Shown: positions 19,543-61,900 of the stretch, one piece after another
Layout: each line of letters opens with the position of its first letter
Numbering within the stretch: position 1 is the first letter of the stretch
Origin: Eledone cirrhosa
Lineage: Eukaryota
Reading direction: 5' to 3'
Assembly (NCBI GenBank): GCA_964016885.1
Contig: OZ024746.1
Coordinates: 59,396,001-59,460,000, forward strand
DNA: 64,000 bases
Position numbers and translations under genes: made by a program
Notes under the pieces: model-generated
What the model was told of the DNA's origin: nothing
Databases searched by the model: none
What the model saw: the letters and a program-made list of their open reading frames with translations, nothing else

Positions 19543-19593
19543 AGCTTCTACAGGACTAGAACTGTTTCATTCGGGAGAAATCATCAGGGAGCT
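19543..19593 (-). ncRNA. Type-I hammerhead ribozyme motif
   Basis: agctcc-CTGATGA-tttctcccgaat-GAAA-CAG-ttctagtc-CTG-TA-gaagct. Confidence 0.75.
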
Positions 19594-20125
19594 GGCTGTC
19601 CAAGTAAGTAGTGGTATTTATATCTTTTTTTTTTCTGGTGGTAGGAGAGGTTGGGGATTGGGATGAGTGGAGGTCATTGGTTGAAGGATTTAAAGAAAAG
19701 GGAGTTCATTAAAAGCTAATTCTTTAAAGCTATAGTATTAACAAAGGCAGAAAGAATACTGTAAACAAAATCAAAATTGGAATACCAATCCTTGTTTATC
19801 ACTTCGACTAACAATGCCTGTAAGACAGGTGTCTACAGGATGGGTGGGGTTCAATGGTTTAAAGAAAAGGGAAATTCTTTAGAAGCTAATTCTGAAAGCT
19901 GGAATAAGGGTGAGAAAGGCAGAAAGGGTTCCATCAACAAATTCAAGTGGTATTCCAAATTTTATTTTGTTTACAGTATTCTTTCTGCCTTTGTTAATAT
20001 TATAGCTTTAAAGAATTAGCTTTTAATGAACTCCCTTTTCTTTAAATCCTTCAACCATCCCAATCCCCACCCTCTCCTACCACCAGAAAAAAAAGATATA
20101 AATACCATTACTTACTTGGACAGCC

Positions 20126-20176
20126 AGCTCCCCGATGATTTCTCACGAATGAAACAGTTCTAGTCCTGTAGAAGCT
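20126..20176 (+). ncRNA. Type-I hammerhead motif with a core mutation (CCGATGA)
   Basis: Mirror copy of 19543-19593 with one substitution in the CUGANGA box. Confidence 0.65.
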
Positions 20177-20190
20177 CCTCTATATTAAAA

Positions 20191-20263
<73 letters not shown>

Positions 20264-31500: not shown

Positions 31501-31637
31501 AGTGAACATTAACAACAACAAAACAAAACAAAGATTACCAGGTAACTTTTTCGTTACCTCATCTTACAATCCATTTTGCATTGTTATATATATATATATA
31601 TATATATAGTTATGTAATAAACAACATAAGGCAATTA

Positions 31638-31698
31638 TTTCATTTACCAGTGGTTTCTTAAAAGCAAAAAAATGTTGTTTTCAATCATCAGAATGAAA
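31638..31698 (-). ncRNA. Type-I hammerhead ribozyme, intact core
   Basis: tttcatt-CTGATGA-ttgaaaacaac..ttgcttttaa-GAAA-CCACTGG-TA-aatgaaa, with a 7-bp stem I. Confidence 0.85.
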
Positions 31699-32089
31699 AA
31701 ATCCTGATGTATTTATTGGCGTTGGATTTTAAAAATAAAAATATAATCTATATGAAAGTGAGGCGGGAAAAGGAAGAAGGAAAGGAAAATGAAAACACAC
31801 ATGCAAACACACACACACACACAATTATATACATACACATATATATATACATACACACATACATACACACACACATACACACACACATACACACATACAC
31901 ACACACACATATATATGTGTATATATATACATACACATACATATACACATACATACACACATAAATATCAACATATCCATACATACACATACATCAAATA
32001 CACAAACGTGCATACACACACATACATGCATATATATATATATACATAAACATATATATACATACATACACACATACATATATATATAT

Positions 32090-32136
<47 letters not shown>

Positions 32137-32395
32137 CATATACATACATATATACATACACATACGTATATACACATGTACATACATACACATACATACA
32201 CACATATATACACGCATACATACGCATGCACAAATATAGAAATATATACACACACCTACATACACACACACACAAATAAATAAAAGAAAAAATATATAAT
32301 ATTAAAAAAATAAAAATGAATATAAATATTAGTATAGTGTTGACAGCGATACAGGCAACAAATAAATGAACAAACACACGTGGTAACAATACACA

Positions 32396-32595
32396 NNNNN
32401 NNNNNNNNNNNNNNNNNNNNNNNNNNNNNNNNNNNNNNNNNNNNNNNNNNNNNNNNNNNNNNNNNNNNNNNNNNNNNNNNNNNNNNNNNNNNNNNNNNNN
32501 NNNNNNNNNNNNNNNNNNNNNNNNNNNNNNNNNNNNNNNNNNNNNNNNNNNNNNNNNNNNNNNNNNNNNNNNNNNNNNNNNNNNNNNNNNNNNNN
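32396..32595. other. Assembly gap (200 N)
   Basis: N run. The same 18-mer acgtggtaacaatacaca lies on both sides. Confidence 0.99.
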
Positions 32596-32777
32596 ACGTG
32601 GTAACAATACACACAAATGCACGTACACATACATACGTAAAAATAAATACATACACACACTCTCACACATACACATACAAATACAAATACATAAACACAT
32701 ACATACGCATACACATATACACACACACACACACACTATATATATACATATATACACACACATACATATACATATAT

Positions 32778-32808
<31 letters not shown>

Positions 32809-32822
32809 ATATATATATATAT

Positions 32823-32859
<37 letters not shown>

Positions 32860-32989
32860 CATACATATTCATACATATATACACATACATATACATACAT
32901 ATCACCAACACATACATACAATTCAAACACATATATATATGTGTGTAAAACTCATTCTTAGATAATTCATATGAACCTTGTTTAACTCT

Positions 32990-33051
<62 letters not shown>

Positions 33052-33395
33052 TTATATACATATATATATATATACATATATATACCTACACACACATATA
33101 CATACACATACGTATACATACATACACACACACACATATAATTATATATATATATATATAAGAAAGAACATAAATATTATATATATTAAAAAACCTAAAT
33201 ATTGTATATATAAAAATAAAAATAAAAATGAAAATAAAAAGTTGGGAATACGACAAAATAATAAATAAAAATATATTTAGAAAAGGGTATAAATGTTTAT
33301 AGCAGAATTAGAGCACTCAACAAGTTCCTGGAGCAAAAGATCAATTAAAATAAGCATTAAATCACTGTATGTAATTATGCATATACATACACACA

Positions 33396-33462
<67 letters not shown>

Positions 33463-33881
33463 TATAATATATATATAGTATATATATACATTACATACAC
33501 ACACACATACATATACGTATATATATATATACACACACATAGGAAAAAGTTTGACCCCACGGCAGAGCTCAAGCCGTTTCTAAGGCTATTATATATATAC
33601 ACACAGTGTATATAAAAGTACAATAAAGTACCAGTAATGCACTGGGTAATTTGCTGGCATTGTGCCTAAAGTAGAAACAATTATATATATACACACAAAA
33701 CCATTATATAAAAAATACATATACACGCACAAATATACACACGCCCATACACACACGTACAAATCCAACAGAAGTATATAATATGCAATTATATATACAT
33801 ATACATATACATACAGATAGACATAAACATACATACACACACCATATACATACACATATACATATACACACACATATACAT

Positions 33882-33926
<45 letters not shown>

Positions 33927-34164
33927 ACATATACATACATATACGGAACACACAAAACAATAAATATCTAAAAATAAAAAAATTGGTACGTGAAGGGTAA
34001 GGCAGAAAGTAGGGGGGGGGTAATAAATGATATAGGAAAAGGTTTAAATATAAGGGGAGATAAGGGAGAAAGAGAATACGAGAGTACAGAACGTGGATTC
34101 AGCAGGTAAAAAAACCGTAGTGGAAGTAAAGAGCAGAGGAGTTCAAAGTGGTTGAGTTATCGTA

Positions 34165-34450
34165 GGAATGTCAATCCAGTTACAGATCAGATGTGATTTC
34201 AGATGAGAACAACATCTGAAGATCTCAGTCTTCGATTTCAGGCAAGCAGAAGTGGCTTTCAAGTTTAGCAAAATCCTATATTTTTTCCGTGGTACACAAA
34301 GAACAATTCTTTGTGCCCCTTTGGTACTCCCTCGAATGGTCTAAAATAGACCAATCGATAGAGTACGGGATATTTTTATCCTTGAATTCCCACACCTTAC
34401 TTGCGAGGGCCGTTGCTGTTCGTTTATTGGAGTGCTTAAAAGAAGCGACG
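34165..34450 (-). pseudogene. PLE GIY-YIG endonuclease C-terminal remnant (one frameshift)
   Basis: ASFKHSNKRTATALASKVWEFKDKNIPYSIDWSILDHSREYQRGTKNCSLCTTEK / YRILL..LKSKTEIFRCCSH aligns by eye with SIKHQSQRNVTTLAEKAWTLRD..LKWEKL..FCKLCNLEIYYII..LNNRIERTLFCRH of the 45.3-46.4 kb ORF. Confidence 0.85.
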
Positions 34451-34681
34451 AATTGTTGCCTGTATCGCTGTCAACACTATAATAATCTTTATATTCATTT
34501 TTATTTTTTTATTATTATATATTTTTTTCTTATATTTATTTGTGTGTGAGTATGTAGGTATGTGTATATATTTCTATATTTGTGTATGCGTATGTATGCG
34601 TGTATATATGTGTGTATTTATGTGTATGTATGTACGTGTGTATATACGTATGATTGTGTGTATGTATGTATGTGTATATAT

Positions 34682-35401
34682 CTGGACCACGCATATAAGC
34701 AGCAAAGTTGACATGGCCCGCAGAATGTGTTCCTGGATCCTCAGAACCTTCCAGTCGAGAGATTCCCGCACCATTATCCTTCTCTTCTCTACTTTCGCCC
34801 GACCACACCTTGAATACTGTTGTCCACTGTGGTCTCCCCACACGAAACAAAGTATCATGAAACTTGAAGCTCCTCAAAGGGCAATCACAAAAAAGATAGA
34901 TGGCATGTCAGACCTTGACTACTGGGGTCGATTGGAAAACCTGAAACTTTACTCACTCCAACGTCGCCGTGAGCGTTATATTATCTGCATGATGTGGAAA
35001 ATGTTCCATCATCACTGCCCAAATGATGTTGGCATCGCCTTCAAGATACACCCAAGGCTTGGGCCCCGTGCTATCCGTCCCATTCAAAAATCTAAATCGC
35101 AACTCATAACAACAATACGGCACAATTATTTCACCTCAATCGGCCCTGCTCTCTTCAACATCACACCAGGACACGTCAAAACAGAAACTGACCACACAAA
35201 ATTCAAGAAATCTTTGGACAAATTCCTCCAAGTAATCCCGGACAAACCACCCACACCCGGATATGTCTCCGCAAACAGTAATTCTCTTCTCGAATGGGCC
35301 ATGGTGCCCAAATCCTGAATTGAAAGACTTCGCCAGGTGGTGCTATTAAGTTAGACATGGCCTGGGCCAATACTGGCCAAAACATTTCAAAGTCAAAGTT
35401 A
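34682..35401 (+). mobile_element. 5'-truncated CR1/L2-clade LINE (post-RT C-terminus, uninterrupted frame to 35318)
   Basis: [83 protein letters not shown]. Candidate TSD tatgtatgtgtatata at 34665-34680 / 35402-35417. Confidence 0.9.
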
Positions 35402-35410
35402 TATGTATGT

Positions 35411-35444
<34 letters not shown>

Positions 35445-35483
35445 ATATATATGTATGTGTGTGTATGTATGTATATATATGTT

Positions 35484-35601
<118 letters not shown>

Positions 35602-35897
35602 CACGTCTGTGTATTTGTATGTATGTCTATGTATGGATATGTTGATATTTATGTGTGTGTGTATGTTTGTATGTATGTTTATATGTATGTGTATATATAC
35701 ACACATATATGTGTGTGTGTGTATGTGTGTGTGTATGTGTGTATGTATATATATATGTGTATGTATATAATTGTGTGTGTGTGTCTGTGTTTGCATGTGT
35801 GTTTTTATTTTTCCTTTCCTTCTTCCGCCTCACTTTCATATAGATTATATTTTTGTTTTTAAAATCCAACGCCAATAAATACACCAGGATTTTTTTC

Positions 35898-35954
35898 TCA
35901 TTCTGATGATTGAAAGCAACATTTTTTTGCTTTTAAGAAACCACTGGTAAATGA
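35898..35954 (+). ncRNA. Type-I hammerhead ribozyme, intact core
   Basis: tcatt-CTGATGA-ttgaaagcaa/ttgcttttaa (10-bp stem II)-GAAA-CCACTGG-TA-aatga. Confidence 0.88.
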
Positions 35955-36049
35955 AATAATTGCCTTATGTTGTTTATTATATAACTATTAAGCTCTGTTA
36001 CCTACATAGACCACTCTTTTTTCCTGGACTTTTCCGACGGAATTACTTC

Positions 36050-36115
<66 letters not shown>

Positions 36116-43110: not shown

Positions 43111-43146
<36 letters not shown>

Positions 43147-43183
43147 GAAAGATTTGAATGGATACAGTTTAGTTGAAAGGAAT

Positions 43184-43300
43184 TTATTGACACGTGTTTC
43201 TATAACAGTTACATAACCTAAAACAGCTATCTACAAACTTTTAGTTATGCAGACATTCAATATTTCAATGTTATTGTTTACTGTCATTTCATCAGAATAA
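43184..43300 (-). ncRNA. Hammerhead ribozyme motif (mirror of 47329-47445)
   Basis: Reverse complement of the plus-strand copy. Confidence 0.7.
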
Positions 43301-43892
43301 TATTACTGAGGACCTATTTAGTTTTTATAGAGAATATTAGGAGGAAGGGGTGAAGTTGTTAGAAGAATAGTTGAAGGAGTGGTTTTTCGATAGCAGTGAG
43401 AATTCTTGGTGGCAGTGATTAATTAGATTCCCATCTGTTGTTTTGACATTTTTTATAGAATATATTATTGGTTATTTTTCTAAATCTATAGAAGGATTAG
43501 AGATAGTAAAGATATGCGTGGTTGGTTTTGTGTTTGCACTTAACATTCAGACTTAAATTTTTCTTTCAAGTGTACGTATTCTTTCACCCACGCATTCACA
43601 CACAAATATATTTGCACACCTCTACAAAATACATATACTCACAATTCACATATTCATACTTACATATATATACACATGCATACACATATATATACACACA
43701 TGTATTCATGTACATACATACGCGCTCATGTGTATACATTTTCATACTCAACTTATCTTTATATATACACACGTATAGACACACACATATATACATACAT
43801 ACTCTAGTCCATGTGTACACACATACACATACATACACATCCATATACACATACATACATACACATATATATATATACATATATACATATAC

Positions 43893-43947
<55 letters not shown>

Positions 43948-43964
43948 CATATATACACACATAT

Positions 43965-43997
<33 letters not shown>

Positions 43998-44266
43998 AGC
44001 ACTTTAATACATGAATACACTTACATCTAACTATACACATCAAACATATATATATATTTACTTATTTATATACATTTTCACATATATATACATACTTATG
44101 GACGTTTTTAGACACATTCATTATCGCATATTTGTACCTATTCTCATCAGCATATCTTTTCATTATTAGTATGGTAATTTAAGGTTATTAATATATGTTG
44201 AAAAGAGATTGTTTTTATATTTTTCTAACTAGATTAAGGTTTATATAGTTGGGGGATGTCCCTCTT

Positions 44267-45301
44267 TTATGTAATATTCGGCTTGTAGTGGGAAAAAAGG
44301 GTTTTAGTTCTGTGACGGCAGAATAATGTTCGTTCAATTCTGTTATTCAGCAGTTTCTTCTTGTGTGTGATTATGTAATAAATCTCAAGATTACACAATT
44401 TGCAGAAATTTTGGCTCCTGGAAAAGCTTTGGGTTTTAGCTAATTTTTCCCATTTTAGGGTAAACTTTTGATTGCTATCCCTGAGCGTCCAAGCTTTCTC
44501 TGCTAAAGTTGTTACATTTCTTTGGCTCTGGTGTTTTATTGAGTAAGAATGCCTATACAATCGAGATTTAAACGATGTTGCCGTTGATCCCACGTAATAC
44601 CACTCGTTGCCTCCGGATTTAATGGTACACTTATAAATAATATTTTTTTCCAGGCAGTTATTGCCGAGGGGGCAGTTGTCAGGATAGGTGCAGTTACAGT
44701 TGTGTACGTTGGGTTTTCTCTGGAGTAGTATTGCGGACGAACTTAGGTGTGGTTTATTTATGTTCTGTAGTGTATTGTCTACTGTTTTTTTGGGGTTCTT
44801 TGTACTTAAGTTCTTAGTGTTTTCGTTTAACCTTCTAGTATTGATCTTTTTTATGTGTTGTTCAAGGTTTAACGCTGTAGAGTATGACAGTCTTATAGTG
44901 GTAGGGTTTAGGATTTTGTGGTATTTGTGTGATGTGGGAAAATGTCTTTTAATTATTTTAAAGAAGAGTACTGGTAAATTTGTACTAATGGAGCTATTGT
45001 ATTCGGGGTTATACCATAAGTACTCTTTGCATCGCTTTCTATTAGTTTTGTTTGTTGGTTTACTGGTGTGCATACTATGGTAGTAAGTGTGGTTTGGTGT
45101 TGTGTTATTATATCTACCTATGTGGGATTTATTTTGGGTGTTTTGATTGTTCCCATCTATGTACTCTATTTTGTTGAGGTAGCCTGCTTTACTAAGGGCG
45201 TTATCGTAGTACTCGGCGTGTTCCTTAAATACTTGTATGTTAGAAGATAGACCCGAGATTCTAAGGGAAATATTTTTAGGGATAGATTTAATTATAGAGA
45301 T
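44267..45301 (-). pseudogene. Inverted duplicate of the truncated PLE ORF
   Basis: Encodes the same 268-aa product as 45556-46362. Confidence 0.9.
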
Positions 45302-46362
45302 ACGTAAATGTTGGGTCTAACCACCCCATCTCTATAATTAAATCTATCCCTAAAAATATTTCCCTTAGAATCTCGGGTCTATCTTCTAACATACAAGTAT
45401 TTAAGGAACACGCCGAGTACTACGATAACGCCCTTAGTAAAGCAGGCTACCTCAACAAAATAGAGTACATAGATGGGAACAATCAAAACACCCAAAATAA
45501 ATCCCACATAGGTAGATATAATAACACAACACCAAACCACACTTACTACCATAGTATGCACACCAGTAAACCAACAAACAAAACTAATAGAAAGCGATGC
45601 AAAGAGTACTTATGGTATAACCCCGAATACAATAGCTCCATTAGTACAAATTTACCAGTACTCTTCTTTAAAATAATTAAAAGACATTTTCCCACATCAC
45701 ACAAATACCACAAAATCCTAAACCCTACCACTATAAGACTGTCATACTCTACAGCGTTAAACCTTGAACAACACATAAAAAAGATCAATACTAGAAGGTT
45801 AAACGAAAACACTAAGAACTTAAGTACAAAGAACCCCAAAAAAACAGTAGACAATACACTACAGAACATAAATAAACCACACCTAAGTTCGTCCGCAATA
45901 CTACTCCAGAGAAAACCCAACGTACACAACTGTAACTGCACCTATCCTGACAACTGCCCCCTCGGCAATAACTGCCTGGAAAAAAATATTATTTATAAGT
46001 GTACCATTAAATCCGGAGGCAACGAGTGGTATTACGTGGGATCAACGGCAACATCGTTTAAATCTCGATTGTATAGGCATTCTTACTCAATAAAACACCA
46101 GAGCCAAAGAAATGTAACAACTTTAGCAGAGAAAGCTTGGACGCTCAGGGATAGCAATCAAAAGTTTACCCTAAAATGGGAAAAATTAGCTAAAACCCAA
46201 AGCTTTTCCAGGAGCCAAAATTTCTGCAAATTGTGTAATCTTGAGATTTATTACATAATCACACACAAGAAGAAACTGCTGAATAACAGAATTGAACGAA
46301 CATTATTCTGCCGTCACAGAACTAAAACCCTTTTTTCCCACTACAAGCCGAATATTACATAA
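45298..46362 (+). CDS. 5'-truncated PLE polyprotein: RT thumb end + linker + Cys-rich motif + GIY-YIG endonuclease (Naiad-like)
   Basis: The frame is open from 45298, upstream of the annotated ATG at 45556: RYVNVGSNHPISIIKSIPKNISLRISGLSSN..YYDNALSKAGY..LWYNPEYN..CNCTYPDNCPLGNNCLEKNIIY..YYVGSTATSFKSRLYRH..CKLCNLE..LLNNRIE..CRH. The RT catalytic core is absent. Confidence 0.88.
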   Translation, partial: RYVNVGSNHPISIIKSIPKNISLRISGLSSNIQVFKEHAEYYDNALSKAGYLNKIEYIDGNNQNTQNKSHIGRYNNTTPNHTYYHSMHTSKPTNKTNRKRCKEYLWYNPEYNSSISTNLPVLFFKIIKRHFPTSHKYHKILNPTTIRLSYSTALNLEQHIKKINTRRLNENTKNLSTKNPKKTVDNTLQNINKPHLSSSAILLQRKPNVHNCNCTYPDNCPLGNNCLEKNIIYKCTIKSGGNEWYYVGSTATSFKSRLYRHSYSIKHQSQRNVTTLAEKAWTLRDSNQKFTLKWEKLAKTQSFSRSQNFCKLCNLEIYYIITHKKKLLNNRIERTLFCRHRTKTLFSHYKPNIT

Positions 46363-46631
46363 AAGAGGGACATCCCCCAACTATATAAACCTTAATCTAG
46401 TTAGAAAAATATAAAAACAATCTCTTTTCAACATATATTAATAACCTTAAATTACCATACTAATAATGAAAAGATATGCTGATGAGAATAGGTACAAATA
46501 TGCGATAATGAATGTGTCTAAAAACGTCCATAAGTATGTATATATATGTGAAAATGTATATAAATAAGTAAATATATATATATGTTTGATGTGTATAGTT
46601 AGATGTAAGTGTATTCATGTATTAAAGTGCT

Positions 46632-46664
<33 letters not shown>

Positions 46665-46681
46665 ATATGTGTGTATATATG

Positions 46682-46736
<55 letters not shown>

Positions 46737-47328
46737 GTATATGTATATATGTATATATATATATGTGTATGTATGTATGTGTATATGGATGTGTATGTAT
46801 GTGTATGTGTGTACACATGGACTAGAGTATGTATGTATATATGTGTGTGTCTATACGTGTGTATATATAAAGATAAGTTGAGTATGAAAATGTATACACA
46901 TGAGCGCGTATGTATGTACATGAATACATGTGTGTATATATATGTGTATGCATGTGTATATATATGTAAGTATGAATATGTGAATTGTGAGTATATGTAT
47001 TTTGTAGAGGTGTGCAAATATATTTGTGTGTGAATGCGTGGGTGAAAGAATACGTACACTTGAAAGAAAAATTTAAGTCTGAATGTTAAGTGCAAACACA
47101 AAACCAACCACGCATATCTTTACTATCTCTAATCCTTCTATAGATTTAGAAAAATAACCAATAATATATTCTATAAAAAATGTCAAAACAACAGATGGGA
47201 ATCTAATTAATCACTGCCACCAAGAATTCTCACTGCTATCGAAAAACCACTCCTTCAACTATTCTTCTAACAACTTCACCCCTTCCTCCTAATATTCTCT
47301 ATAAAAACTAAATAGGTCCTCAGTAATA

Positions 47329-47445
47329 TTATTCTGATGAAATGACAGTAAACAATAACATTGAAATATTGAATGTCTGCATAACTAAAAGTTTGTAGAT
47401 AGCTGTTTTAGGTTATGTAACTGTTATAGAAACACGTGTCAATAA
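47329..47445 (+). ncRNA. Hammerhead ribozyme motif with extended stem II and minimal palindromic stem III
   Basis: ttatt-CTGATGA-a-atgacagt..(~70 nt)..actgttat-a-GAAA-CACGTG-TC-aataa. Confidence 0.72.
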
Positions 47446-47592
47446 ATTCCTTTCAACTAAACTGTATCCATTCAAATCTTTCTATTTTTCTCCGGATTAC
47501 TTTTGGAACTACAACTGGAACCGTCGAGCAAACTCTACGTGAGCTGAAAATCTACTGTGTGTAATATTTATATTACAACACAACGGAAAAAA

Positions 47593-47628
<36 letters not shown>

Positions 47629-49239: not shown

Positions 49240-49960
49240 CATGTTGGAGGTTATGGCGTTGTTGTATGTACTGCTGTGTCTATGTTGGTGATTGTGGTTG
49301 TGTTGAATGTACTGCAGTGTTGGATCTATGTCAGTAGTTGTGTTGTTGCTGGATGTAGTGTGTTGTAGTCTCTATATGGGGTGGTGTGGTGTTGCATGCG
49401 GTGTAGGATCTGTGACAGTAGTTGTGATATTGTTGGGTGTAGTGTGCTGTAGTGTCTATGCTGGTGGCTACGGTGTTTTTGTGTGTATGTACTGTAGCGT
49501 CTACGTTGGTAGTTGTGGTGTTGTATGTATGTACTGTAAAGCCTATGTGGGTAGTTGTAGTGTTGCTGTATGTATTGCAATATAGTGTATATGTTGGTAT
49601 TGTGATGTTATTGAATATACTGTAGTATCTATGTTGGTAGTTGTGGTGTAGTTGTATGTCTGTACTGTAGTGTGTAAGTCAGTAGTTGTGGTACTGTTGT
49701 ATGTACTGTAGTGTCTACGTTGATGGTGGTTGTATGTATTGCACTGTAATGTCTATGCTGTAGTGTTCTTAGATATAATGTACTGTAGTGTCTATGTTGG
49801 TGATTATTGTGCAGTTGTATGTATTGTATTGTAGTGTCTATGTCAGTAGATGTGGTGTCATTGTATGTACTGTAGTGTCTATGGTGGTAGATGTGGTGCT
49901 GTTGTATGTATTGTAATGTCTATGTTAGTACTTGACGTGTCGTTGTAGGTATTGTAATGT
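49240..49960 (+). repeat. Diverged proximal edge of the 45-bp satellite
   Basis: Irregular units sharing tgtagtgtctatgttggtagttgtggtg. Confidence 0.8.
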
Positions 49961-52900
49961 GGTGTCTATGTTAGTAGTTGTACTGTTGTTGACTGTATGT
50001 TCTGTAGTGTCTATGTTGGTAGTTGTACTGTTGTTGACTGTATGTTCTGTAGTGTCTATGTTGGTAGTTGTACAGTTGTTGACTGTATGTTCTGTAGTGT
50101 CTATGTGGCTAGTTGTGGTGTTGTTGACTGTATGTTCTGTAGTGTCTATGTTGGTAGTTGTACTGTTGTTGACTGTATGTTCTGTAGTGTCTATGTAGGT
50201 AGTTGTGGTGTTGTTGACTATGTTCTGTAGTGTCTATGTTGGTAGTTGTACAGTTGTTGACTGTATGTTCTGTAGTGTCTATGTTGGTAGTTGTGGTGTT
50301 GTTGACTGTATGTTCTGTAGTGTCTATGTTAGTAGTTGTAGTGTTGTTGACTGTATGTTCTGTAGTGTCTATGTTGGTAGTTGTAGTGTTGTTGACTATG
50401 TTCTGTAGTGTCTATGTTAGTAGTTGTGGTGTTGGTGACTGTATGTTCTGTAGTGTCTATGGTGGTAGTTGTGGTGTTGTTGACTGAATGTTCTGTAGTG
50501 TCTATGGTGGTAGTTGTGGTGTTGTTGACTGTATGTTCTGTAGTGTCTATGTGGCTAGTTGTGGTGTTGTTGATTGTATGTTCTGTAGTGTCTATGTTGG
50601 TAGTTGTGGTGTTGTTGACTGTATGTTCTGTAGTGTCTATGTTGGTAGTTGTGGTGTTGTTGACTGTATGTTCTGTAGTGTCTATGTTGGTAGTTGTACA
50701 GTTGTTGACTGTATGTTCTGTAGTGTCTATGTTGGTAGTTGTGGTGTTGTTGACTGTATGTTCTGTAGTGTCTATGTTGGTAGTTGTACAGTTGTTGACT
50801 GTATGTTCTGTAGTGTCTATGTTGGTAGTTGTGGTGTTGTTGACTGTATGTTCTGTAGTGTCTATGTTGGTAGTTGTAGTGTTGTTGACTCTATGCTCTG
50901 TAGTGCCTATGTAAGTAGTTGTGGTGTTGTTGACTGTATGTTCTGTAGTGTCTATGTTGGTAGTTGTGGTGTTGTTGACTGTATGTTCTGTAGTGTCTAT
51001 GTTGGTAGTTGTGGTGTTGTTGACTGTATGTTCTGTAGTGTCTATGTTGGTAGTTGTACTGTTGTTGACTGTATGTTCTGTAGTGTCTATGTTGATAGTT
51101 GTGGTGTTGTTGACTGTATGTTCTGTAGTGTCTATGTTGGTAGTTGTATAGTTGTTGACTGTATGTTCTGTAGTGTCTATGTTGGTAGTTGTATAGTTGT
51201 TGACTGTATGTTCTGTAGTGTCTATGTTGGTAGTTGTACTGTTGTTGACTGTATGTTCTGTAGTGTCTATGTTGGTAGTTGTAGTGTTGTTGACTGTATG
51301 TTCTGTAGTGTCTATGTTGGTAGTTGTATAGTTGTTGATTGTATGTTCTGTAGTGTCTATGTTAGTAGTTGTGGTGTTGTTGACTGTATGTTCTGTAGTG
51401 TCTATGGTGGTAGTTGTGGTGTTGTTGACTGTATGTTCTATAGTGTCTATGTTAGTAGTTGTACAGTTGTTGACTGTATGTTCTGTAGTATGTATGTTAG
51501 TAGTTGTGGTGTTGTTGACTGTATGTTCTGTAGTGTCTATGTTGGTAGTTGGGGTGTTGTTGACTGTATGTTCTGTAGTGCCTATGTTGGTAGTTGTAGT
51601 GTTGTTGACTGTATGCTCTATAGTGTCTATGTTGGTAGTTGTGGTGTTGTTGACTGTATGTTCTGTAGTGTCTATGTTGGTAGTTGTGGTGTTGTTGGCT
51701 GTATGTTCTGTAGTGTGTATGTTAGTAGTTGTGGTGTTGTTGACTGTATGTTCTGTAGTGTCTATGCTGGTAGTTGTGGTGTTGTTGACTGTATGTTCTG
51801 TAGTGTCTATGTTGGTAGTTGTGGTGTTGTTGACTGTATGTTCTGTAGTGTCTATGTTGGTAGTTGTGGTGTTGTTGACTGTATGTTCTGTAGTGTTTAT
51901 GTTGGTAGTTGTGGTGTTGTTGACTGTATGTTCTGTAGTGTCTATGTTGGTAATTGTGGTGTTGTTGAGTGTATGTTCTGTAGTGTCTATGTTGGTAGTT
52001 GTAGTGTTGTTGACTGTATGTTCTGTAGTGTCTATGTTGGTAGTTGTACTGTTGTTGACTGTATGTTCTGTAGTGTCTATGTTGGTAGTTGTACAGTTGT
52101 TGACTTTATGTTCTGTAGTGTCTATGTGGCTAGTTGTGGTGTTGTTGACTGTATGTTCTGTAGTGTCTATGTTGGTAGTTGTACTGTTGTTGACTGTATG
52201 TTCTGTAGTGTCTATGTTGGTAGTTGTGGTGTTGTTAACTGTATGTTCTGTAGTGTCTATGTTGGTAGTTGTACAGTTGTTGACTGTATGTTCTGTAGTG
52301 TCTATGTTGGTAGTTGTGGTGTTGTTGACTGTATGTTCTGTAGTGTCTATGTTGGTAGTCGTACTATTGTTGACTGTATGTTCTGTGGTGTCTATGTTGG
52401 TAGTTGTACAGTTGTTGACTGTATGTTCTGTAGTGTCTATGTTAGTAGTTGTGGTGTTGTTGACTGTATGTTCTGTAGTGTCTATGTGGATAGTTGTGGT
52501 GTTGTTGACTGTATGTTCTGTAGTGTCTATGTTGGTAGTTGTGGTGTTGTTGACTGTATATTCTGTAGTGTCTATGTTGGTAATTGTGGTGTTGTTGACT
52601 GTATGTTCTGTAGTGTCTATGTTGGTAGTTGTACAGTTGTTGACTGTATGTTCTGTAGTGTCTATGTTGGTAGTTGTGGTGTTGTTGACTGTATGTTCTG
52701 TAGTGTCTATGTTGGTAGTTGTACAGTTGTTGACTGTATGTTCTGTAGTGTCTATGGTAGTTGTGGTGTTGTTGACTGTATGTTCTGTAGTGTATATGTT
52801 GGTAGTTGTAGTGTTGTTGACTGTATGCTCTGTAGTGCCTATGTAAGTAGTTGTGGTGTTGTTGACTGTATGTTCTGTAGTGCCTATGTTGGTAGTTGTG

Positions 52901-55900
52901 GTGTTGTTGACTGTATGTTCTGTAGTGTCTATGTTGGTAGTTGTACAGTTGTTGACTGTATGTTCTGTAGTGTCTATGTTGGTAGTTGTATAGATGTTGA
53001 CTGTATGTTCTGTAGTGTCTATGTTAGTAGTTGTGGTGTTGTTGACTGTATGTTCTGTAGTGTCTATGGTGGTAGTTGTGGTGTTGTTGACTGTATTTTC
53101 TATAGTGTCTATGTTAGTAGTTGTACAGTTGTTGACTGTATGTTCTGTAGTATGTATGTTAGTAGTTGTGGTGTTGTTGACTGTATGTTCTGTAGTCTCT
53201 ATGTTGGTAGTTGGGGTGTTGTTGACTGTATGTTCTGTAGTGCCTATGTTGGTAGTTGTAGTGTTGTTGACTGTATGCTCTATAGTGTCTATGTTGGTAG
53301 TTGTGGTGTTGTTGACTGTATGTTCTGTAGTGTCTATGTTGGTAGTTGTGGTGTTGTTGGCTGTATGTTCTGTAGTGTGTATGTTAGTAGTTGTGGTGTT
53401 GTTGAATGTATGTTCTGTAGTGTCTATGCTGGTAGTTGTGGTGTTGTTGACTCTATGTTCTGTAGTGTCTATGTTAGTAGTTGTGGTGTTGTTGACTGTA
53501 TGTTCTGTAGTGTCTATGTGGGTAGTTGTGGTGTTGTTGACTGTATGTTCTGTAGTGTCTATGTTGGTAGTTGTGGTGTTGTTGACTGTATGTTCTGTAG
53601 TGTCTATGTTAGTAGTTGTGGTGTTGTTGACTGTATGTTCTGTAGTGTCTATGTTGGTAGTTGTGGTGTTGTTGACTGTATGGTCTGTAGTGTCTATGTT
53701 GGTAGTTGTAGTGTTGTTGACTGTATGTTCTGTAGTGTCTATGTTGGTAGTTGTGGTGTTGTTGACTGTATGTTCTGTACTGTCTATGTTGGTAGTTGTG
53801 GTGTTGTTGACTGTATGTTCTGTAGTGTCTATGTTGGTAGTTGTAGTGTTGTTGACTGTATGTTCTGTAGTGTCTATGTTGGTAGTTGTGGTGTTGTTGA
53901 CTGTATGTTCTGTAGTGTCTATGTTGGTAGTTGTGGTGTTGTTGACTGTATGTTCTGTAGTGTCTATGTTGGTAGTTGTGGTGTTGTTGGCTGTATGTTC
54001 TGTAGTGTGTATGTTAGTAGTTGTGGTGTTGTTGACTGTATGTTCTGTAGTGTCTATGTTGGTAGTTGTAGTGTTGTTGACTGTATGTTCTGTAGTGTGT
54101 ATGTTAGTAGTTGTGGTGTTGTTGACTGTATGTTCTGTAGTGTCTATGTTGGTAGTTGTGGTGTTGTTGACTGTATGTTCTGTAGTGTCTATGTTGGTAG
54201 TTGTACAGTTGTTGACTGTATGTTCTGTAGTGTCTATGTTAGTAGTTGTGGTGTTGTTGACTGTATGTTCTGTAGTGTCTATGTTGGTAGTTGTGGTGTT
54301 GTTGACTGTATGTTCTGTAGTTTCTATGTTGGTAGTTGTGGTGTTGTTGACTGTATGTTCTGTAGTGTCTATGTTGGTAGTTGTGGTGTTGTTGGCTGTA
54401 TGTTCTGTAGTGTGTATGTTAGTAGTTGTGGTGTTGTTGACTGTATGTTCTGTAGTGTCTATGTTGGTAGTTGTGGTGTTGTTGACTGTATGTTCTGTAG
54501 TGTCTATGTTGGTAGTTGTGGTGTTGTTGACTGTATGTTCTATAGTGTCTATGTTAGTAGTTGTGGTGTTGTTGACTGTATGTTCTGTAGTGTCTATGTT
54601 GGTAGTTGTGGTGGTGTTGACTGTATGTTCTGTAGTGTCTATGTTAGTAATTGTGGTGTTGTTGACTGTATGTTCTGTAGTGTCTATGTTAGTAGTTGTA
54701 CTGTTGTTGACTGTATGTTCTGTAGTTTCTATGTTGGTAGTTGTGGTGTTGTTGACTGTATGTTCTGTAGTGTCTATGTTAGTAATTGTGGTGTTGTTGA
54801 CTGTATGTTCTGTAGTGTCTATGTTGGTAGTTGTACAGTTGTTGACTGTATGTTCTGTAGTGTCTATGTTGGTAGTTGTGGTGTTGTTGACTGTATGTTC
54901 TGTAGTGTCTATGTTGGTAGTTGTGGTGTTGTTGACTGTATGTTCTGTAGTGTCTATGTTGGTAATTGTGGTGTTGTTGATTGTATGTTCTGTAGTGTCT
55001 ATGTTGGTAGTTGTAGTGTTGTTGACTGTATGTTCTGTAGTGTCTATGTTGGTAGTTGTGGTGTTGTTGACTGTATGTTCTATAGTGTCTATGTTGGTAG
55101 TTGTGGTGTTGTTGACTGTATGTTCTTTAGTGTCTATGTTGGTAGTTGTGGTGTTGTTGACTGTATGTTTTGTAGTGTCTATGTTAGTAGTTGTACTGTT
55201 GTTGACTGTATGTTCTGTAGTGTCTATGTTGGTAGTTGTACTGTTGTTGACAGTATGTTCTGTAGTGTCTATGTTGGTAGTTGTACTGTTGTTGACTGTA
55301 TGTTCTATAGTGTCTATGTTGGTAGTTGTACTGTTGTTGACTGTATGTTCTGTAGTGTCTATGTTGGTAGTTGTACTGTTGTTGACTGTATGTTCTGTAG
55401 TGTCTATGTTGGAAGTTGTGGTGTTGTTGACTGTATGTTCTGTAGTATCTATGTTGGTAGTTGTACTGTTGTTGACTGTATGTTCTGTAGTGTCTATGTT
55501 GGTAGTTGTACTGTTGTTGACTGTATGTTCTGTAGTGTCTATGTTGGTAGTTGTACTGTTGTTGACTGTATGTTCTGTAGTGTCTATGATGGTAGTTGTG
55601 GTGTTGTTGACTGTATGTTCTGTAGTGTCTATGTTGGTAGTTGTGGTGTTGTTGACTGTATGTTCTGTAGTGTCTATGTTAGTAGTTGTGGTGTTGTTGA
55701 CTGTATGTTCTGTAGTGTCTATGGTGGTAGTTGTGGTGTTGTTGACTGTATGTTCTATAGTGTCTATGTTAGTAGTTGTACAGTTGTTGACTGTATGTTC
55801 TGTAGTATGTATGTTAGTAGTTGTGGTGTTGTTGACTGTATGTTCTGTAGTGTCTATGTTGGTAGTTGTGGTGTTGTTGACTGTATGTTCTGTAGTGTCT

Positions 55901-58900
55901 ATGTTGGTAGTTGTAGTGTTGTTGACTGTATGTTCTGTAGTGTCTATGTTGGTAGTTGTGGTGTTGTTGACTGTATGTTCTGTAGTGTCTATGTTGGTAG
56001 TTGTGGTGTTGTTGGCTGTATGTTCTGTAGTGTGTATGTTAGTAGTTGTGGTGTTGTTGACTGTATGTTCTGTAGTGTCTATGCTGGTAGTTGTGGTGTT
56101 GTTGACTGTATGTTCTGTAGTGTCTATGTTGGTAGTTGTGGTGTTGTTGACTCTATGTTCTGTAGTGTCTATGTTAGTAGTTGTGGTGTTGTTGACTGTA
56201 TGTTCTGTAGTGTCTATGTTGGTAGTTGCGGTGTTGTTGACTGTATGTTCTGTAGTGTCTATGTTGGTAGTTGTAGTGTTGTTGACTGTATGTTCTGTAG
56301 TGTCTATGTTGGTAGTTGTGGTGTTGTTGACTGTATGTTCTGTAGTGTCTATGTTGGTAGTTGTGGTGTTGTTGACTGTATGTTCTATAGTGTCTATGTT
56401 GGTAATTGTGGTGTTGTTGAGTGTATGTTCTGTAGTGTCTATGTTGGTAGTTGGGGTGTTGTTGACTGTATGTTCTGTAGTGCCTATGTTGGTAGTTGTA
56501 GTGTTGTTGACTGTATGCTCTATAGTGTCTATGTTGGTAGTTGTGGTGTTGTTGACTGTATGTTCTGTAGTGTCTATGTTGGTAGTTGTGGTGTTGTTGG
56601 CTGTATGTTCTGTAGTGTGTATGTTAGTAGTTGTGTTGTTGTTGACTGTATGTTCTGTAGTGTCTATGCTGGTAGTTGTGGTGTTGTTGACTCTATGTTC
56701 TGTAGTGTCTATGTTGGTAGTTGTGGTGTTGTTGACTGTATGTTCTGTAGTGTCTATGTTAGTAGTTGTGGTGTTGTTGACTGTATGTTCTGTAGTGTCT
56801 ATGTTGGTAGTTGTGGTGTTGTTGACTGTATGTTCTGTAGTGTCTATGTTGGTAGTTGTAGCGTTGTTGACTGTATGTTCTGTAGTGTCTATGTTGGTAG
56901 TTGTGGTGTTGTTGACTGTATGTTCTGTAGTGTCTATGTTGGTAGTTGTGGTGTTGTTGACTGTATTTTCTGTAGTGTCTATGTTGGTAATTGTGGTGTT
57001 GTTGAGTGTATGTTCTGTAGTGTCTATGTTGGTAGTTGTAGTGTTGTTGACTGTATGTTCTGTAGTGTCTATGTTGGTAGTTGTGGTGTTGTTGACTGTA
57101 TGTTCTATAGTGTCTATGTTGGTAGTTGTGGTGTGGTTGACTGTATGTTCTGTAGTGTCTATGTTGGTAGTTGTGGTGTTGTTGACTGTATGTTCTGTAG
57201 TGTCTATGTTGGTAGTTGTAGTGTTGTTGACTGTATGCTCTGTAGTGCCTATGTAAGTAGTTGTGGTGTTGTTGACTGTATGTTCTGTAGTGTCTATGTT
57301 GGTAGTTGTGGTGTTGTTGACTGTATGTTCTGTAGTGTCTATGTTGGTAGTTGTGGTGTTGTTGACTGTATGTTCTGTAGTGTCTATGTTGGTAGTTGTA
57401 TAGTTGTTGACTGTATGTTCTGTAGTGTCTATGTTAGTAGTTGTGGTGTTGTTGACTGTATGTTCTGTAGTGTCTATGGTGGTAGTTGTGGTGTTGTTGA
57501 CTGTATGTTCTATAGTGTCTATGTTAGTAGTTGTACAGTTGTTGACTGTATGTTCTGTAGTATGTATGTTAGTAGTTGTGGTGTTGTTGACTGTATGTTC
57601 TGTAGTGTCTATGTTGGTAGTTGGGGTGTTGTTGACTGTATGTTCTGTAGTGCCTATGTTGGTAGTTGTAGTGTTGTTGACTGTATGCTCTATAGTGTCT
57701 ATGTTGGTAGTTGTGGTGTTGTTGACTGTATGTTCTGTAGTGTCTATGTTGGTAGTTGTACTGTTGTTGACTGTATGCTCTGTAGTGCCTATGTAAGTAG
57801 TTGTGGTGTTGTTGACTGTATGTTCTGTAGTGTCTATGTTGGTAGTTGTGGTGTTGTTGACTGTATGTTCTGTAGTGTCTATGTGGGTAGTTGTGGTGTT
57901 GTTGACTGTATGTTCTGTAGTGTCTATGTTGGTAGTTGTGGTGTTGTTGACTGTATGTTCTGTAGTGTCTATGTTAGTAGTTGTGGTGTTGTTGACTGTA
58001 TGTTCTGTAGTGTCTATGTTGGTAGTTGTGGTGTTGTTGACTGTATGGTCTGTAGTGTCTATGTTGGTAGTTGTAGTGTTGTTGACTGTATGTTCTGTAG
58101 TGTCTATGTTGGTAGTTGTGGTGTTGTTGACTGTATGTTCTGTACTGTCTATGTTGGTAGTTGTGGTGTTGTTGACTGTATGTTCTGTAGTGTCTATGTT
58201 GGTAGTTGTAGTGTTGTTGACTGTATGTTCTGTAGTGTCTATGTTGGTAGTTGTGGTGTTGTTGACTGTATGTTCTGTAGTGTCTATGTTGGTAGTTGTG
58301 GTGTTGTTGACTGTATGTTCTGTAGTGTCTATGTTGGTAGTTGTGGTGTTGTTGGCTGTATGTTCTGTAGTGTATATGTTAGTAGTTGTGGTGTTGTTGA
58401 CTGTATGTTCTGTAGTGTCTATGTTGGTAGTTGTAGTGTTGTTGACTGTATGTTCTGTAGTGTGTATGTTAGTAGTTGTGGTGTTGTTGACTGTATGTTC
58501 TGTAGTGTCTATGTTGGTAGTTGTGGTGTTGTTGACTGTATGTTCTGTAGTGTCTATGTTGGTAGTTGTACAGTTGTTGACTGTATGTTCTGTAGTGTCT
58601 ATGTTAGTAGTTGTGGTGTTGTTGACTGTATGTTCTGTAGTGTCTATGTTGGTAGTTGTGGTGTTGTTGACTGTATGTTCTGTAGTTTCTATGTTGGTAG
58701 TTGTGGTGTTGTTGACTGTATGTTCTGTAGTGTCTATGTTGGTAGTTGTGGTGTTGTTGGCTGTATGTTCTGTAGTGTGTATGTTAGTAGTTGTGGTGTT
58801 GTTGACTGTATGTTCTGTAGTGTCTATGTTGGTAGTTGTGGTGGTGTTGACTGTATGTTCTGTAGTGTCTATGTTAGTAATTGTGGTGTTGTTGACTGTA

Positions 58901-61900
58901 TGTTCTGTAGTGTCTATGTTAGTAGTTGTACTGTTGTTGACTGTATGTTCTGTAGTTTCTATGTTGGTAGTTGTGGTGTTGTTGACTGTATGTTCTGTAG
59001 TGTCTATGTTAGTAATTGTGGTGTTGTTGACTGTATGTTCTGTAGTGTCTATGTTAGTAGTTGTGGTGTTGTTGACTGTATGTTCTGTAGTGTCTATGGT
59101 GGTAGTTGTGGTGTTGTTGACTGTATTTTCTATAGTGTCTATGTTAGTAGTTGTACAGTTGTTGACTGTATGTTCTGTAGTATGTATGTTAGTAGTTGTG
59201 GTGTTGTTGACTGTATGTTCTGTAGTCTCTATGTTGGTAGTTGGGGTGTTGTTGACTGTATGTTCTGTAGTGCCTATGTTGGTAGTTGTAGTGTTGTTGA
59301 CTGTATGCTCTATAGTGTCTATGTTGGTAGTTGTGGTGTTGTTGACTGTATGTTCTGTAGTGTCTATGTTGGTAGTTGTGGTGTTGTTGGCTGTATGTTC
59401 TGTAGTGTGTATGTTAGTAGTTGTGGTGTTGTTGAATGTATGTTCTGTAGTGTCTATGCTGGTAGTTGTGGTGTTGTTGACTCTATGTTCTGTAGTGTCT
59501 ATGTTAGTAGTTGTGGTGTTGTTGACTGTATGTTCTGTAGTGTCTATGTGGGTAGTTGTGGTGTTGTTGACTGTATGTTCTGTAGTGTCTATGTTGGTAG
59601 TTGTGGTGTTGTTGACTGTATGTTCTGTAGTGTCTATGTTAGTAGTTGTGGTGTTGTTGACTGTATGTTCTGTAGTGTCTATGTTGGTAGTTGTGGTGTT
59701 GTTGACTGTATGGTCTGTAGTGTCTATGTTGGTAGTTGTAGTGTTGTTGACTGTATGTTCTGTAGTGTCTATGTTGGTAGTTGTGGTGTTGTTGACTGTA
59801 TGTTCTGTACTGTCTATGTTGGTAGTTGTGGTGTTGTTGACTGTATGTTCTGTAGTGTCTATGTTGGTAGTTGTAGTGTTGTTGACTGTATGTTCTGTAG
59901 TGTCTATGTTGGTAGTTGTGGTGTTGTTGACTGTATGTTCTGTAGTGTCTATGTTGGTAGTTGTGGTGTTGTTGACTGTATGTTCTGTAGTGTCTATGTT
60001 GGTAGTTGTGGTGTTGTTGGCTGTATGTTCTGTAGTGTGTATGTTAGTAGTTGTGGTGTTGTTGACTGTATGTTCTGTAGTGTCTATGTTGGTAGTTGTA
60101 GTGTTGTTGACTGTATGTTCTGTAGTGTGTATGTTAGTAGTTGTGGTGTTGTTGACTGTATGTTCTGTAGTGTCTATGTTGGTAGTTGTGGTGTTGTTGA
60201 CTGTATGTTCTGTAGTGTCTATGTTGGTAGTTGTACAGTTGTTGACTGTATGTTCTGTAGTGTCTATGTTAGTAGTTGTGGTGTTGTTGACTGTATGTTC
60301 TGTAGTGTCTATGTTGGTAGTTGTGGTGTTGTTGACTGTATGTTCTGTAGTTTCTATGTTGGTAGTTGTGGTGTTGTTGACTGTATGTTCTGTAGTGTCT
60401 ATGTTGGTAGTTGTGGTGTTGTTGGCTGTATGTTCTGTAGTGTGTATGTTAGTAGTTGTGGTGTTGTTGACTGTATGTTCTGTAGTGTCTATGTTGGTAG
60501 TTGTGGTGTTGTTGACTGTATGTTCTGTAGTGTCTATGTTGGTAGTTGTGGTGTTGTTGACTGTATGTTCTATAGTGTCTATGTTAGTAGTTGTGGTGTT
60601 GTTGACTGTATGTTCTGTAGTGTCTATGTTGGTAGTTGTGGTGGTGTTGACTGTATGTTCTGTAGTGTCTATGTTAGTAATTGTGGTGTTGTTGACTGTA
60701 TGTTCTGTAGTGTCTATGTTAGTAGTTGTACTGTTGTTGACTGTATGTTCTGTAGTTTCTATGTTGGTAGTTGTGGTGTTGTTGACTGTATGTTCTGTAG
60801 TGTCTATGTTAGTAATTGTGGTGTTGTTGACTGTATGTTCTGTAGTGTCTATGTTGGTAGTTGTACAGTTGTTGACTGTATGTTCTGTAGTGTCTATGTT
60901 GGTAGTTGTGGTGTTGTTGACTGTATGTTCTGTAGTGTCTATGTTGGTAGTTGTGGTGTTGTTGACTGTATGTTCTGTAGTGTCTATGTTGGTAATTGTG
61001 GTGTTGTTGATTGTATGTTCTGTAGTGTCTATGTTGGTAGTTGTAGTGTTGTTGACTGTATGTTCTGTAGTGTCTATGTTGGTAGTTGTGGTGTTGTTGA
61101 CTGTATGTTCTATAGTGTCTATGTTGGTAGTTGTGGTGTTGTTGACTGTATGTTCTTTAGTGTCTATGTTGGTAGTTGTGGTGTTGTTGACTGTATGTTT
61201 TGTAGTGTCTATGTTAGTAGTTGTACTGTTGTTGACTGTATGTTCTGTAGTGTCTATGTTGGTAGTTGTACTGTTGTTGACAGTATGTTCTGTAGTGTCT
61301 ATGTTGGTAGTTGTACTGTTGTTGACTGTATGTTCTATAGTGTCTATGTTGGTAGTTGTACTGTTGTTGACTGTATGTTCTGTAGTGTCTATGTTGGTAG
61401 TTGTACTGTTGTTGACTGTATGTTCTGTAGTGTCTATGTTGGAAGTTGTGGTGTTGTTGACTGTATGTTCTGTAGTATCTATGTTGGTAGTTGTACTGTT
61501 GTTGACTGTATGTTCTGTAGTGTCTATGTTGGTAGTTGTACTGTTGTTGACTGTATGTTCTGTAGTGTCTATGTTGGTAGTTGTACTGTTGTTGACTGTA
61601 TGTTCTGTAGTGTCTATGATGGTAGTTGTGGTGTTGTTGACTGTATGTTCTGTAGTGTCTATGTTGGTAGTTGTGGTGTTGTTGACTGTATGTTCTGTAG
61701 TGTCTATGTTAGTAGTTGTGGTGTTGTTGACTGTATGTTCTGTAGTGTCTATGGTGGTAGTTGTGGTGTTGTTGACTGTATGTTCTATAGTGTCTATGTT
61801 AGTAGTTGTACAGTTGTTGACTGTATGTTCTGTAGTATGTATGTTAGTAGTTGTGGTGTTGTTGACTGTATGTTCTGTAGTGTCTATGTTGGTAGTTGTG

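Follow-up and report, generated by a model that had tools for sequence, protein, structure and literature searches.

Two 5'-truncated Penelope-like element copies stand head to head in a (TA)n tract of Eledone cirrhosa as a 4.3-kb palindrome

Introduction

The origin of inverted ends and one-sided tails in Penelope-like elements (PLEs) is stated as open in PMC8557442 and PMC11167929. For a Poseidon PLE in vitro, PMC11167929 describes cleavage and extension of both target strands and RT starts at two sites bounding the tail. The tail in that system is 30–40 nt, start sites did not differ between the strands, and the excerpted text does not model the inverted product. The in vitro work alone leaves a one-sided tail unexplained, because it concerns another clade, a 30–40 nt tail and strand-equal start sites. 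Craig et al. (PMC8557442) ascribe the tail to endonuclease resolution of a hairpin.

Here we describe a locus in a window of 64,000 nt (contig OZ024746.1, Eledone cirrhosa), where two 5'-truncated PLE copies lie head to head in (TA)n. For a known PLE insertion pattern, its symmetry is unusual and the insertion is likely recent.

Results

In the window sequence, the left arm (43144–45301, minus strand) is the exact reverse complement of the right arm (45328–47485, plus strand). The arms of 2158 bp show 0 mismatches, the first mismatch falls at 43143/47486, and a 26-nt spacer (45302–45327) lies between them. Each arm contains eight perfect dinucleotide runs, the longest being (TA)19, with lengths equal across both arms in 8/8 cases. 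Arm identity including microsatellite lengths, as claimed by a sequence-only reading, is thereby borne out. The palindrome is far beyond chance, because the next longest exact inverted match within 1–49240 is a simple repeat of 75 bp.

The whole palindrome of about 4.3 kb sits inside (TA)n, with (TA)n at both ends. The left target tract (43123–43143) is preceded by (TC)6, and three bases (43144–43146) are compatible with both this tract and the element end. The right tract, (TA)15.5 at 47596–47626, is followed by degenerate (CT)n. Between right arm and right tract lies a 110-bp tail (47486–47595, plus strand) that the left arm lacks, in agreement with the earlier description of both tail and tracts; the tail end, 47595, is located just past an AC-rich predicted stem-loop. 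Flanking DNA is not duplicated, and a target duplication is unreadable because both insertion ends lie in (TA)n. In a six-frame listing, a clear host exon did not appear on both flanks, and the listing thus gave no proof that the flanks are contiguous.

The right arm comprises the ORF, a 1.1-kb 3' region and a hammerhead motif (47329–47445, plus strand), and runs to a short terminus. The left arm is an inverted, tail-less copy from the thumb to the same short 3' terminus, with the mirrored hammerhead motif at 43184–43300 and the mirrored thumb–linker–GIY-YIG coding region at 44267–45301 (both minus strand). A TA/TG microsatellite-rich stretch of the 3' region (46536–46967) is the same in both arms. 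Within one arm, no complementarity of more than 10 bp was found between ORF and 3' region.

The plus frame 45298–46362 reads R, then YVNVGSNHP, then 345 further residues and a stop, and the ORF is open across 354 codons. The unpaired spacer is native sequence and encodes the YVNVGSNHP thumb motif in frame on the plus strand, as had been proposed; the last left-arm base (45301) is the first base of the thumb Y codon. The 3' part of the PLE ORF (45301–46362, plus strand) carries WYNP, the linker (45931), IIY (45988), YVG (46033), CxxC..E (46225) and CxH (46309). Its alignment to a 759-aa homolog starts at homolog residue 422. Therefore the earlier assignment to a PLE with RT and GIY-YIG stands for thumb and endonuclease and fails for the RT catalytic core, which is absent. 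The Hydra clade is further characterised by RWK and DKT motifs and a divergent RT4. Among homologs of at least 650 aa, DK[T/S] occurs in 22/24 and RW[K/R] in 13/24; the window copy is without that region and, lacking the RT core, cannot move by itself.

After the thumb there is a C-terminal GIY-YIG domain that aligns to homologs, with IIY/YVG and the R, H, E and N region. The linker has CxCx5C of the Hydra type (CNCTYPDNC, residue 212) rather than Cx2-5CxxC. A CCHH motif is absent from the endonuclease, with a single cysteine (235) between IIY and YVG, in contrast to Neptune, Nematis or Penelope/Poseidon PLEs. Moreover, CxxC stands ahead of the conserved E (CKLCNLE at 310), and CxH past the conserved N (CRH at 338). 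These motifs place the element in the Hydra clade of PLEs, with truncation in the RT thumb. Pfam returned 0 families for the window ORF and 0 for three other frames; with five homologs nothing exceeded the cut-off, and one of the five gave a sub-threshold GIY-YIG match. A search for homologous proteins gave 0 matches among 1960 longer candidates, and two matches at 29% among 1543 near-length candidates were not of the window's PLE family.

The hammerhead motif at 47329–47445 consists of a 5-bp stem I, a CUGAUGA core, an 85-nt hairpin as stem II, GAAA and a short stem III, with a pattern-based predicted cut after 47440. A scan for the pattern found four sites in 1–49240, all within this PLE pair and a second one described below, and 0 in 200 resampled sequences. 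Rfam gave 57 and 6 sub-threshold matches, none of them a hammerhead; miRNA matches among them were attributed to the hairpin and the microsatellites. The two ends of the palindromic insertion lie 45 nt (47485) and 155 nt (47595) past the predicted cut, and those of the second pair 39 and 103 nt past theirs. According to numbers from the data of PMC8557442, published Hydra consensus ends fall at 30–48 nt in 10/24 and at 88–153 nt in 11/24, although such ends mirror the choices of curators. TAT occurs 149 times in arm and tail, 20 times beyond 47050, and only once within 28–50 nt after the cut, at 47485, this interval having been picked post hoc. The spacing between hammerhead and left-arm end is thus typical of the clade, which would be expected if priming or cleavage had a second site and not if a recopy had become exhausted.

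The second inverted PLE pair (31606–36052), about 7 kb away, is older. Its arms have diverged, their alignment having 172 matches, 4 substitutions and 12 gap columns, and its 64-bp tail is on the shorter arm. It also contains 18-bp repeats at 32345–32362 and 34453–34470. We had considered this pair as proof against a snap-back origin of the palindrome and dropped the argument, as the 18-bp repeat permits a later deletion.

Family contigs from four public sequencing runs were compared with the palindrome centre; runs with a share of 0.06 or less were not used. Contig depths add up to 22 in X1, to about 1000 in X3 and to thousands or tens of thousands in X12, and were not taken as copy number. 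The X1 contig matches 45300–46530 with 3 differences in 1231 sites and then runs 1267 nt further 5', and the X3 contig leaves upstream of 45300 with the same loose end. Right arm plus spacer are hence the native-orientation, 5'-truncated copy that had been proposed, and 1267 nt upstream with 2296 nt in the window give a full length of at least 3.56 kb. Both arms share the 3 differences, and X12 and X21 carry them as minority alleles, which argues for a single donor for both arms.

The same contigs refine the joint. Before the thumb Y codon the native sequence is AAAT, not AGAT, in two of the four runs, those listed with a loose end at 45300. Native microhomology at the joint is then 2 bp (AT at 45300–45301, the final left-arm bases that also match the native element), or 4 bp with one G.T wobble. 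AGAT had stayed possible because R precedes the thumb Y in 6/87 homologs bearing the motif; the family contigs then read K. Of the AGAT/ATCT bracket reported for the spacer, AGAT is present in the window; since the family natively reads AAAT, it was largely the inversion that created the bracket. A donor copy could have carried the AGAT variant.

Other joints exist in the family. X12 contains one opposite-strand head-to-head joint (45560/45955) with an asymmetry of about 395 bp and no shared letters, which argues against a short loop as a family rule; two further 5' ends in X12 run into (TA)n.

Known artefacts include fold-back chimeras that have a short loop and microhomology, and an assembly or library error could have fused two different near-identical copies through one fold-back read. 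Arms without a single difference, microsatellites included, would fit such an error, other samples abound in near-identical copies of the family, and a record bridging the palindrome centre was found in none of the four runs compared there. However, a fold-back read would end symmetrically, while the left arm exits at the clade-typical terminus into a different flank, and the error requires another copy without a difference along all 2158 bp. Moreover, the older pair 7 kb off has the same layout with diverged arms and cannot be a read fold-back. We regard an artefact as very improbable.

Arm-to-arm conversion occurs in palindromes, and symmetry could have arisen after insertion. A less symmetric pair or a single copy would then have come first; the arms would have been equalised and the centre shortened afterwards, by a template switch during replication or by gene conversion between the arms. 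Asymmetric joints are also made by the family, as in X12. Little time has elapsed since insertion, however, because 354 codons are open and only 3/1231 sites differ from the X1 contig, and the flanking DNA is not duplicated. Long palindromes also tend to lose central symmetry, according to the relevant part of PMC1851657, which counts against this course of events as well. It is therefore rather improbable. The insertion is probably young, as had been proposed.

Discussion

We favour, with a probability of about 0.55, one recent insertion event, with cDNA primed from both target ends at two fixed sites of the RNA and a local fold-back that closed the centre. The GIY-YIG endonuclease would nick both (TA)n strands. 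From the right target end, cDNA would be primed where the tail ends (47595), and from the left target end at the short site (47485), whose final TAT is able to pair with the target. Synthesis of the right cDNA would stop within the thumb, and its 3' end may then fold back across 26 nt, held by 2 bp (4 with wobble). The spacer holds a small internal 4-bp stem of weak predicted stability (-2.6 kcal/mol), which would bring the cDNA end close to its partner. The short fold-back extension would then pair with the left cDNA, and fill-in would complete both strands. The fold-back step is added because stopping points no more than 26 nt apart would not be expected of two independent cDNAs.

Another course, advanced in the sequence-only reading, involves only one cDNA, with priming at the tail end. 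After snapping back it would have been recopied over 2.16 kb, the hairpin then joining the left target end via TA microhomology or after fixed-site endonuclease cleavage. Such a snap-back directly accounts for both the 26-nt loop and arm identity, and the tailed arm is the one extending further 5'. Published proposals invoke self-priming where palindromes occur at inverted junctions of PLEs (PMC3846280) and self-annealed cDNA hairpins in the case of L1 fold-backs (PMC11702581). When an endonuclease resolves a hairpin, a fixed end can result as well, in keeping with this course. On the other hand, native microhomology is 2 bp, not 4, and a left end at the clade-typical short terminus demands an extra site-specific step. 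The tail on the shorter arm of the second pair is a weak objection, as later deletion between the 18-bp repeats could explain it. Central fold-back is thus a plausible part of the proposal, and recopying of nearly the full length is unlikely. The idea of a preserved second-strand intermediate is given up: the insertion is finished, and its layout is a described PLE insertion pattern.

Extending two-ended priming to the clade is more tentative. Hydra-clade PLEs might insert by obligatory priming at both target ends, about 40 and 100–155 nt past the hammerhead, bridged by cDNA fold-back. Fresh insertions would be palindromes of several kilobases, nearly perfect at first and deprived of their centre over time, and the window would hold the fresh (43144–47595) and aged (31606–36052) forms next to each other.

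One locus is insufficient to settle the mechanism, and the pattern is already known. The locus nevertheless offers two precise candidate sites of RT start or cleavage in a clade without biochemistry, and in an abundant young family the models are separable by counting inverted pairs. In addition, a retroelement-made, near-perfect palindrome of 4.3 kb may act as a fragile site or a source of double-stranded RNA.

The family is new and the insertion pattern known. With Hydra-clade PLEs (Craig et al. 2021, PMC8557442) the element shares CxCx5C, absence of CCHH, CxxC/CxH around E and N, a 3' hammerhead and a (TA)n target. Penelope-13_HM (PMC8557442) likewise has an inverted 5'-truncated copy at its 5' end (nt 1–966) and a hammerhead on both strands. 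Hydra-1_Obim, Hydra-1_Amil and Hydra-2_Amil, compared by eye, are families distinct from the window element. The clade is described as 'generally <3 kb', whereas the window family has at least 3.5 kb, exceeding 3 kb because its 3' region is long; this 1.1-kb, microsatellite-rich region is unlike those of the Hydra-clade references. Stem II is an 85-nt hairpin, compared with loops of 3–10 nt in the Hydra motifs listed in PMC8557442, and the arms are nearly equal in length, unlike those of the references including Penelope-13_HM.

Pen2a_Av of Adineta vaga (PMC3846280; PMC8557442) has in common with this locus a head-to-head inverted copy, a one-sided tail and a palindromic inverted junction. Against the canonical PLE unit, the tail is 110 bp instead of 30–40 bp, a direct pseudo-LTR is lacking and the whole insert is palindromic, with 2.16-kb arms. 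PAc (Poseidon, Anolis; Frangieh et al. 2024, PMC11167929) shares with our model the cutting and extension of both target strands and two RT starts bounding the tail, and with the window element an AT-rich target and an AC-rich stem-loop at the start site; it belongs to another clade, and its RT starts fall within the beginning of the following unit's ORF. In L1 twin priming (PMC11702581), the reciprocal target end likewise starts a second RT and the joint is closed on short microhomology, and at L1 fold-back junctions (PMC11702581) cDNA also self-anneals into a hairpin. In L1, however, each cDNA is made from its own part of the RNA and an inversion without duplication arises, whereas here the same 3' part is copied and a palindrome results.

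RESULTS

Extension outward from the 26 unpaired bases of the spacer (45302–45327) gave 2158 complementary pairs with no mismatch between the left arm (43144–45301, minus strand) and the right arm (45328–47485, plus strand); the runner-up exact inverted match in 1–49240 was a 75-bp simple repeat. All perfect dinucleotide runs (8/8) had equal lengths in both arms, and the plus frame 45298–46362 was open for 354 codons, starting with R-YVNVGSNHP and carrying the thumb motif in frame across the spacer. Beyond the right arm there was a 110-bp tail (47486–47595) followed by (TA)n at 47596–47626, and another (TA)n (43123–43143) directly preceded the left arm. The identical arms, the in-frame thumb motif, the one-sided tail and the (TA)n at both ends had been noted in a sequence-only reading, and this observation is confirmed.

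Zero differences in 2158 bp place arm divergence below 0.14% (95%), or an upper age bound of about 70,000–700,000 years if the rate is taken as 1e-8 to 1e-9 per site and year, from which the host's own rate may differ. A low age also fits the matching microsatellite lengths, the intact frame and the 99.8% identity with a contig from the public sequencing run X1, and the insertion is probably young. Conversion or assembly could also erase arm differences. Arm-to-arm conversion is familiar in palindromes, and later homogenisation of these arms would be an improbable source of their identity.

Pfam gave no match to the protein of the palindrome, whereas phmmer returned 5866 relatives at E ≤0.001 (best 6.7e-51). 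The alignment with the best relative starts at residue 422 of 759 (33% identity); the protein therefore covers the thumb, the linker and the endonuclease but lacks the RT core. Among 152 relatives examined for RT motifs, 24 had at least 650 aa, and of these 22 carried DK[T/S] and 13 RW[K/R]. The protein has CxCx5C, a single cysteine within the GIY-YIG core, CxxC..E and CxH, the set that is diagnostic of the Hydra clade (PMC8557442, section 11 and Fig. S7 text), and by these motifs we assign the element to the Hydra-clade Penelope-like elements (PLEs). A pattern scan predicted one hammerhead motif per arm, that at 47329–47445 having an 85-nt hairpin as stem II and a predicted cut after 47440; the scan found four sites in 1–49240 and none in 200 resampled sequences, and Rfam gave no hammerhead match. 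The 85-nt stem II is far above those of listed Hydra motifs, and size-limited motif searches would miss such a site.

The centre region (45262–46530) was compared with 4 of 23 listed public runs. A 2622-bp contig of X1 matched 45300–46530 with three differences and extended 1267 nt upstream, which is about the 421 codons missing relative to the best homolog; run X3 had the same loose end among the loose ends listed (23 of 91). This continuation reads ...N-L-K before YVN, so AAAT, in place of the window's AGAT, is the native sequence. The sequence-only interpretation is partly supported. It holds for a PLE of probable youth; its test of a native AGAT before the thumb motif fails in these copies (X1 and X3, among the listed loose ends), although the donor copy could have differed there. 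Native AAAT reduces the microhomology to 2 bp, or 4 with one G.T wobble. The left arm carries the same three differences from X1 (46131, 46156 and 46427) in mirror image, and they are minority alleles in runs X12 and X21, indicating that both arms came from one donor variant.

One opposite-strand joint in X12 (45560/45955, no shared letters, ~395 bp asymmetry) can be read as head-to-head. This family therefore produces inverted joints, not all of them with a short loop. Two other 5′ ends in X12 pass straight into (TA)n. No record in the four runs bridged the palindrome centre; because the data are thin or come from other samples, this speaks neither for nor against the locus. Fold-back reads are a well-known source of chimeras, and an assembly or library artefact could produce such a palindrome, although we consider this very unlikely here.

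Near-identical family copies (45300–46530) in X1, X2, X3 and X12–X15 had word shares of 0.50–0.69 under four different organism labels, those in X1, X3 and X12 being about 99% identical to the element. Summed depth was very unlike between runs, and in X12 it climbed towards the 3′ end. The family is young, and either it was amplified unevenly or run labels are wrong.

Measured from the predicted cut, the left arm terminates at 45 nt and the tail at 155 nt. In Files S1 and S2 of PMC8557442, consensus ends of 24 of 27 Hydra families (distances within about 1 nt) lie 30–48 nt past the cut in 10, 63–70 in 2, 88–153 in 11 and 355 in 1; two families lacking a hammerhead row, one with its motif listed near the 5′ end, and the antisense row of Penelope-13_HM were left out. 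An older head-to-head pair of another, Hydra-like family (31606–36052, in (TA)n at both ends) has a long minus-strand left arm that contains an endonuclease remnant (34279–34470, tblastn E down to 3e-10) and a short right arm from 34453, which alone bears a tail (64 bp, 35989–36052). Its hammerhead motifs lie on opposite strands (31691–31645, minus; 35903–35949, plus), its ends are 39 and 103 nt past the cut, and its arms have diverged, showing indels and about 98% similarity over the unique 3′ part. CTAT closes the short ends of both insertions before (TA)n, and of 20 TAT sites beyond 47050 just 47485 lies 28–50 nt after the cut, a range drawn after the fact. Taken together, this suggests that the left arm stops at a fixed, clade-typical terminus.

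At the joint of the older pair, an 18-bp stretch (34453–34470), endonuclease coding on one strand, recurs inverted at 32345–32362 in the element's 3′ region. This could reflect a long microhomology native to the element, or else a past deletion or nested inversion. The right arm of this pair holds a ~715-bp insert (34685–35399) with an open 212-codon frame (P0153), for which Pfam gave no match; the frame looks like the 3′-terminal part of a CR1-type LINE. The 200-N gap at 32396–32595 is flanked on both sides by identical 18 bases; the adjoining contigs therefore probably overlap, leaving no real gap.

Elsewhere, a 45-bp unit is repeated in array over 14.7 kb (49241–64000), its copies being about 93% alike; the array is open for 4556 codons on the minus strand (Thr/Asn-rich 15-residue repeats) and 4504 on the plus strand, and is either a mucin-like exon or a satellite. 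At least 12 dispersed SINE-like copies (150–400 bp, both orientations, 68–94% alike) occupy 1154–30107, and self-comparison gave a 267-bp inverted match (19521–19787 and 19948–20198, 91% identity), which may be simple repeat.

DISCUSSION

For a Poseidon PLE in vitro, both target strands are cut and extended, and RT starts at two sites bounding the tail (PMC11167929). By analogy, the right target end would prime RT at the tail end (47595) and the left target end at the short site (47485), a two-ended priming to which we give a probability of about 0.55. Two separate cDNAs would not end 26 nt apart by chance, so the centre requires coupling. Both cDNAs might have reached one broken end of the RNA; a simpler route would be that the end of one cDNA folded back, assisted by a weak 4-bp stem within the spacer, and that its extension paired with the other cDNA.

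The sequence-only reading had proposed that one cDNA snapped back on microhomology and was recopied along nearly its whole length, which we regard as doubtful but worth retaining, because endonuclease resolution, which Craig et al. propose as the origin of the tail (PMC8557442), could likewise yield a fixed end, and because in vitro start sites are alike on both strands (PMC11167929). A tail on the short arm, as in the older pair, is impossible under pure snap-back; however, the 18-bp joint repeat permits a subsequent deletion such as has been reported for palindromes (PMC1851657), and that pair thus decides nothing between the models.

A two-ended model of PLE insertion was not found in the literature searched, and older Penelope papers may contain one. 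Self-priming has been proposed for palindromes at PLE junctions (PMC3846280), and L1 twin priming and fold-backs are mechanistic analogues (PMC11702581). No prior statement of the two-distance pattern of Hydra ends was found in the portions of PLE literature compared. An inverted 5′-truncated copy with a one-sided tail is a described PLE layout (PMC3846280 and PMC8557442), which Penelope-13_HM shows inside the Hydra clade (PMC8557442). The present locus looks like a real insertion of an undescribed Hydra-clade family at the symmetric extreme of this layout, from which it differs in its near-equal 2.2-kb arms, 110-bp tail, long hammerhead stem II and two-distance pattern of ends.
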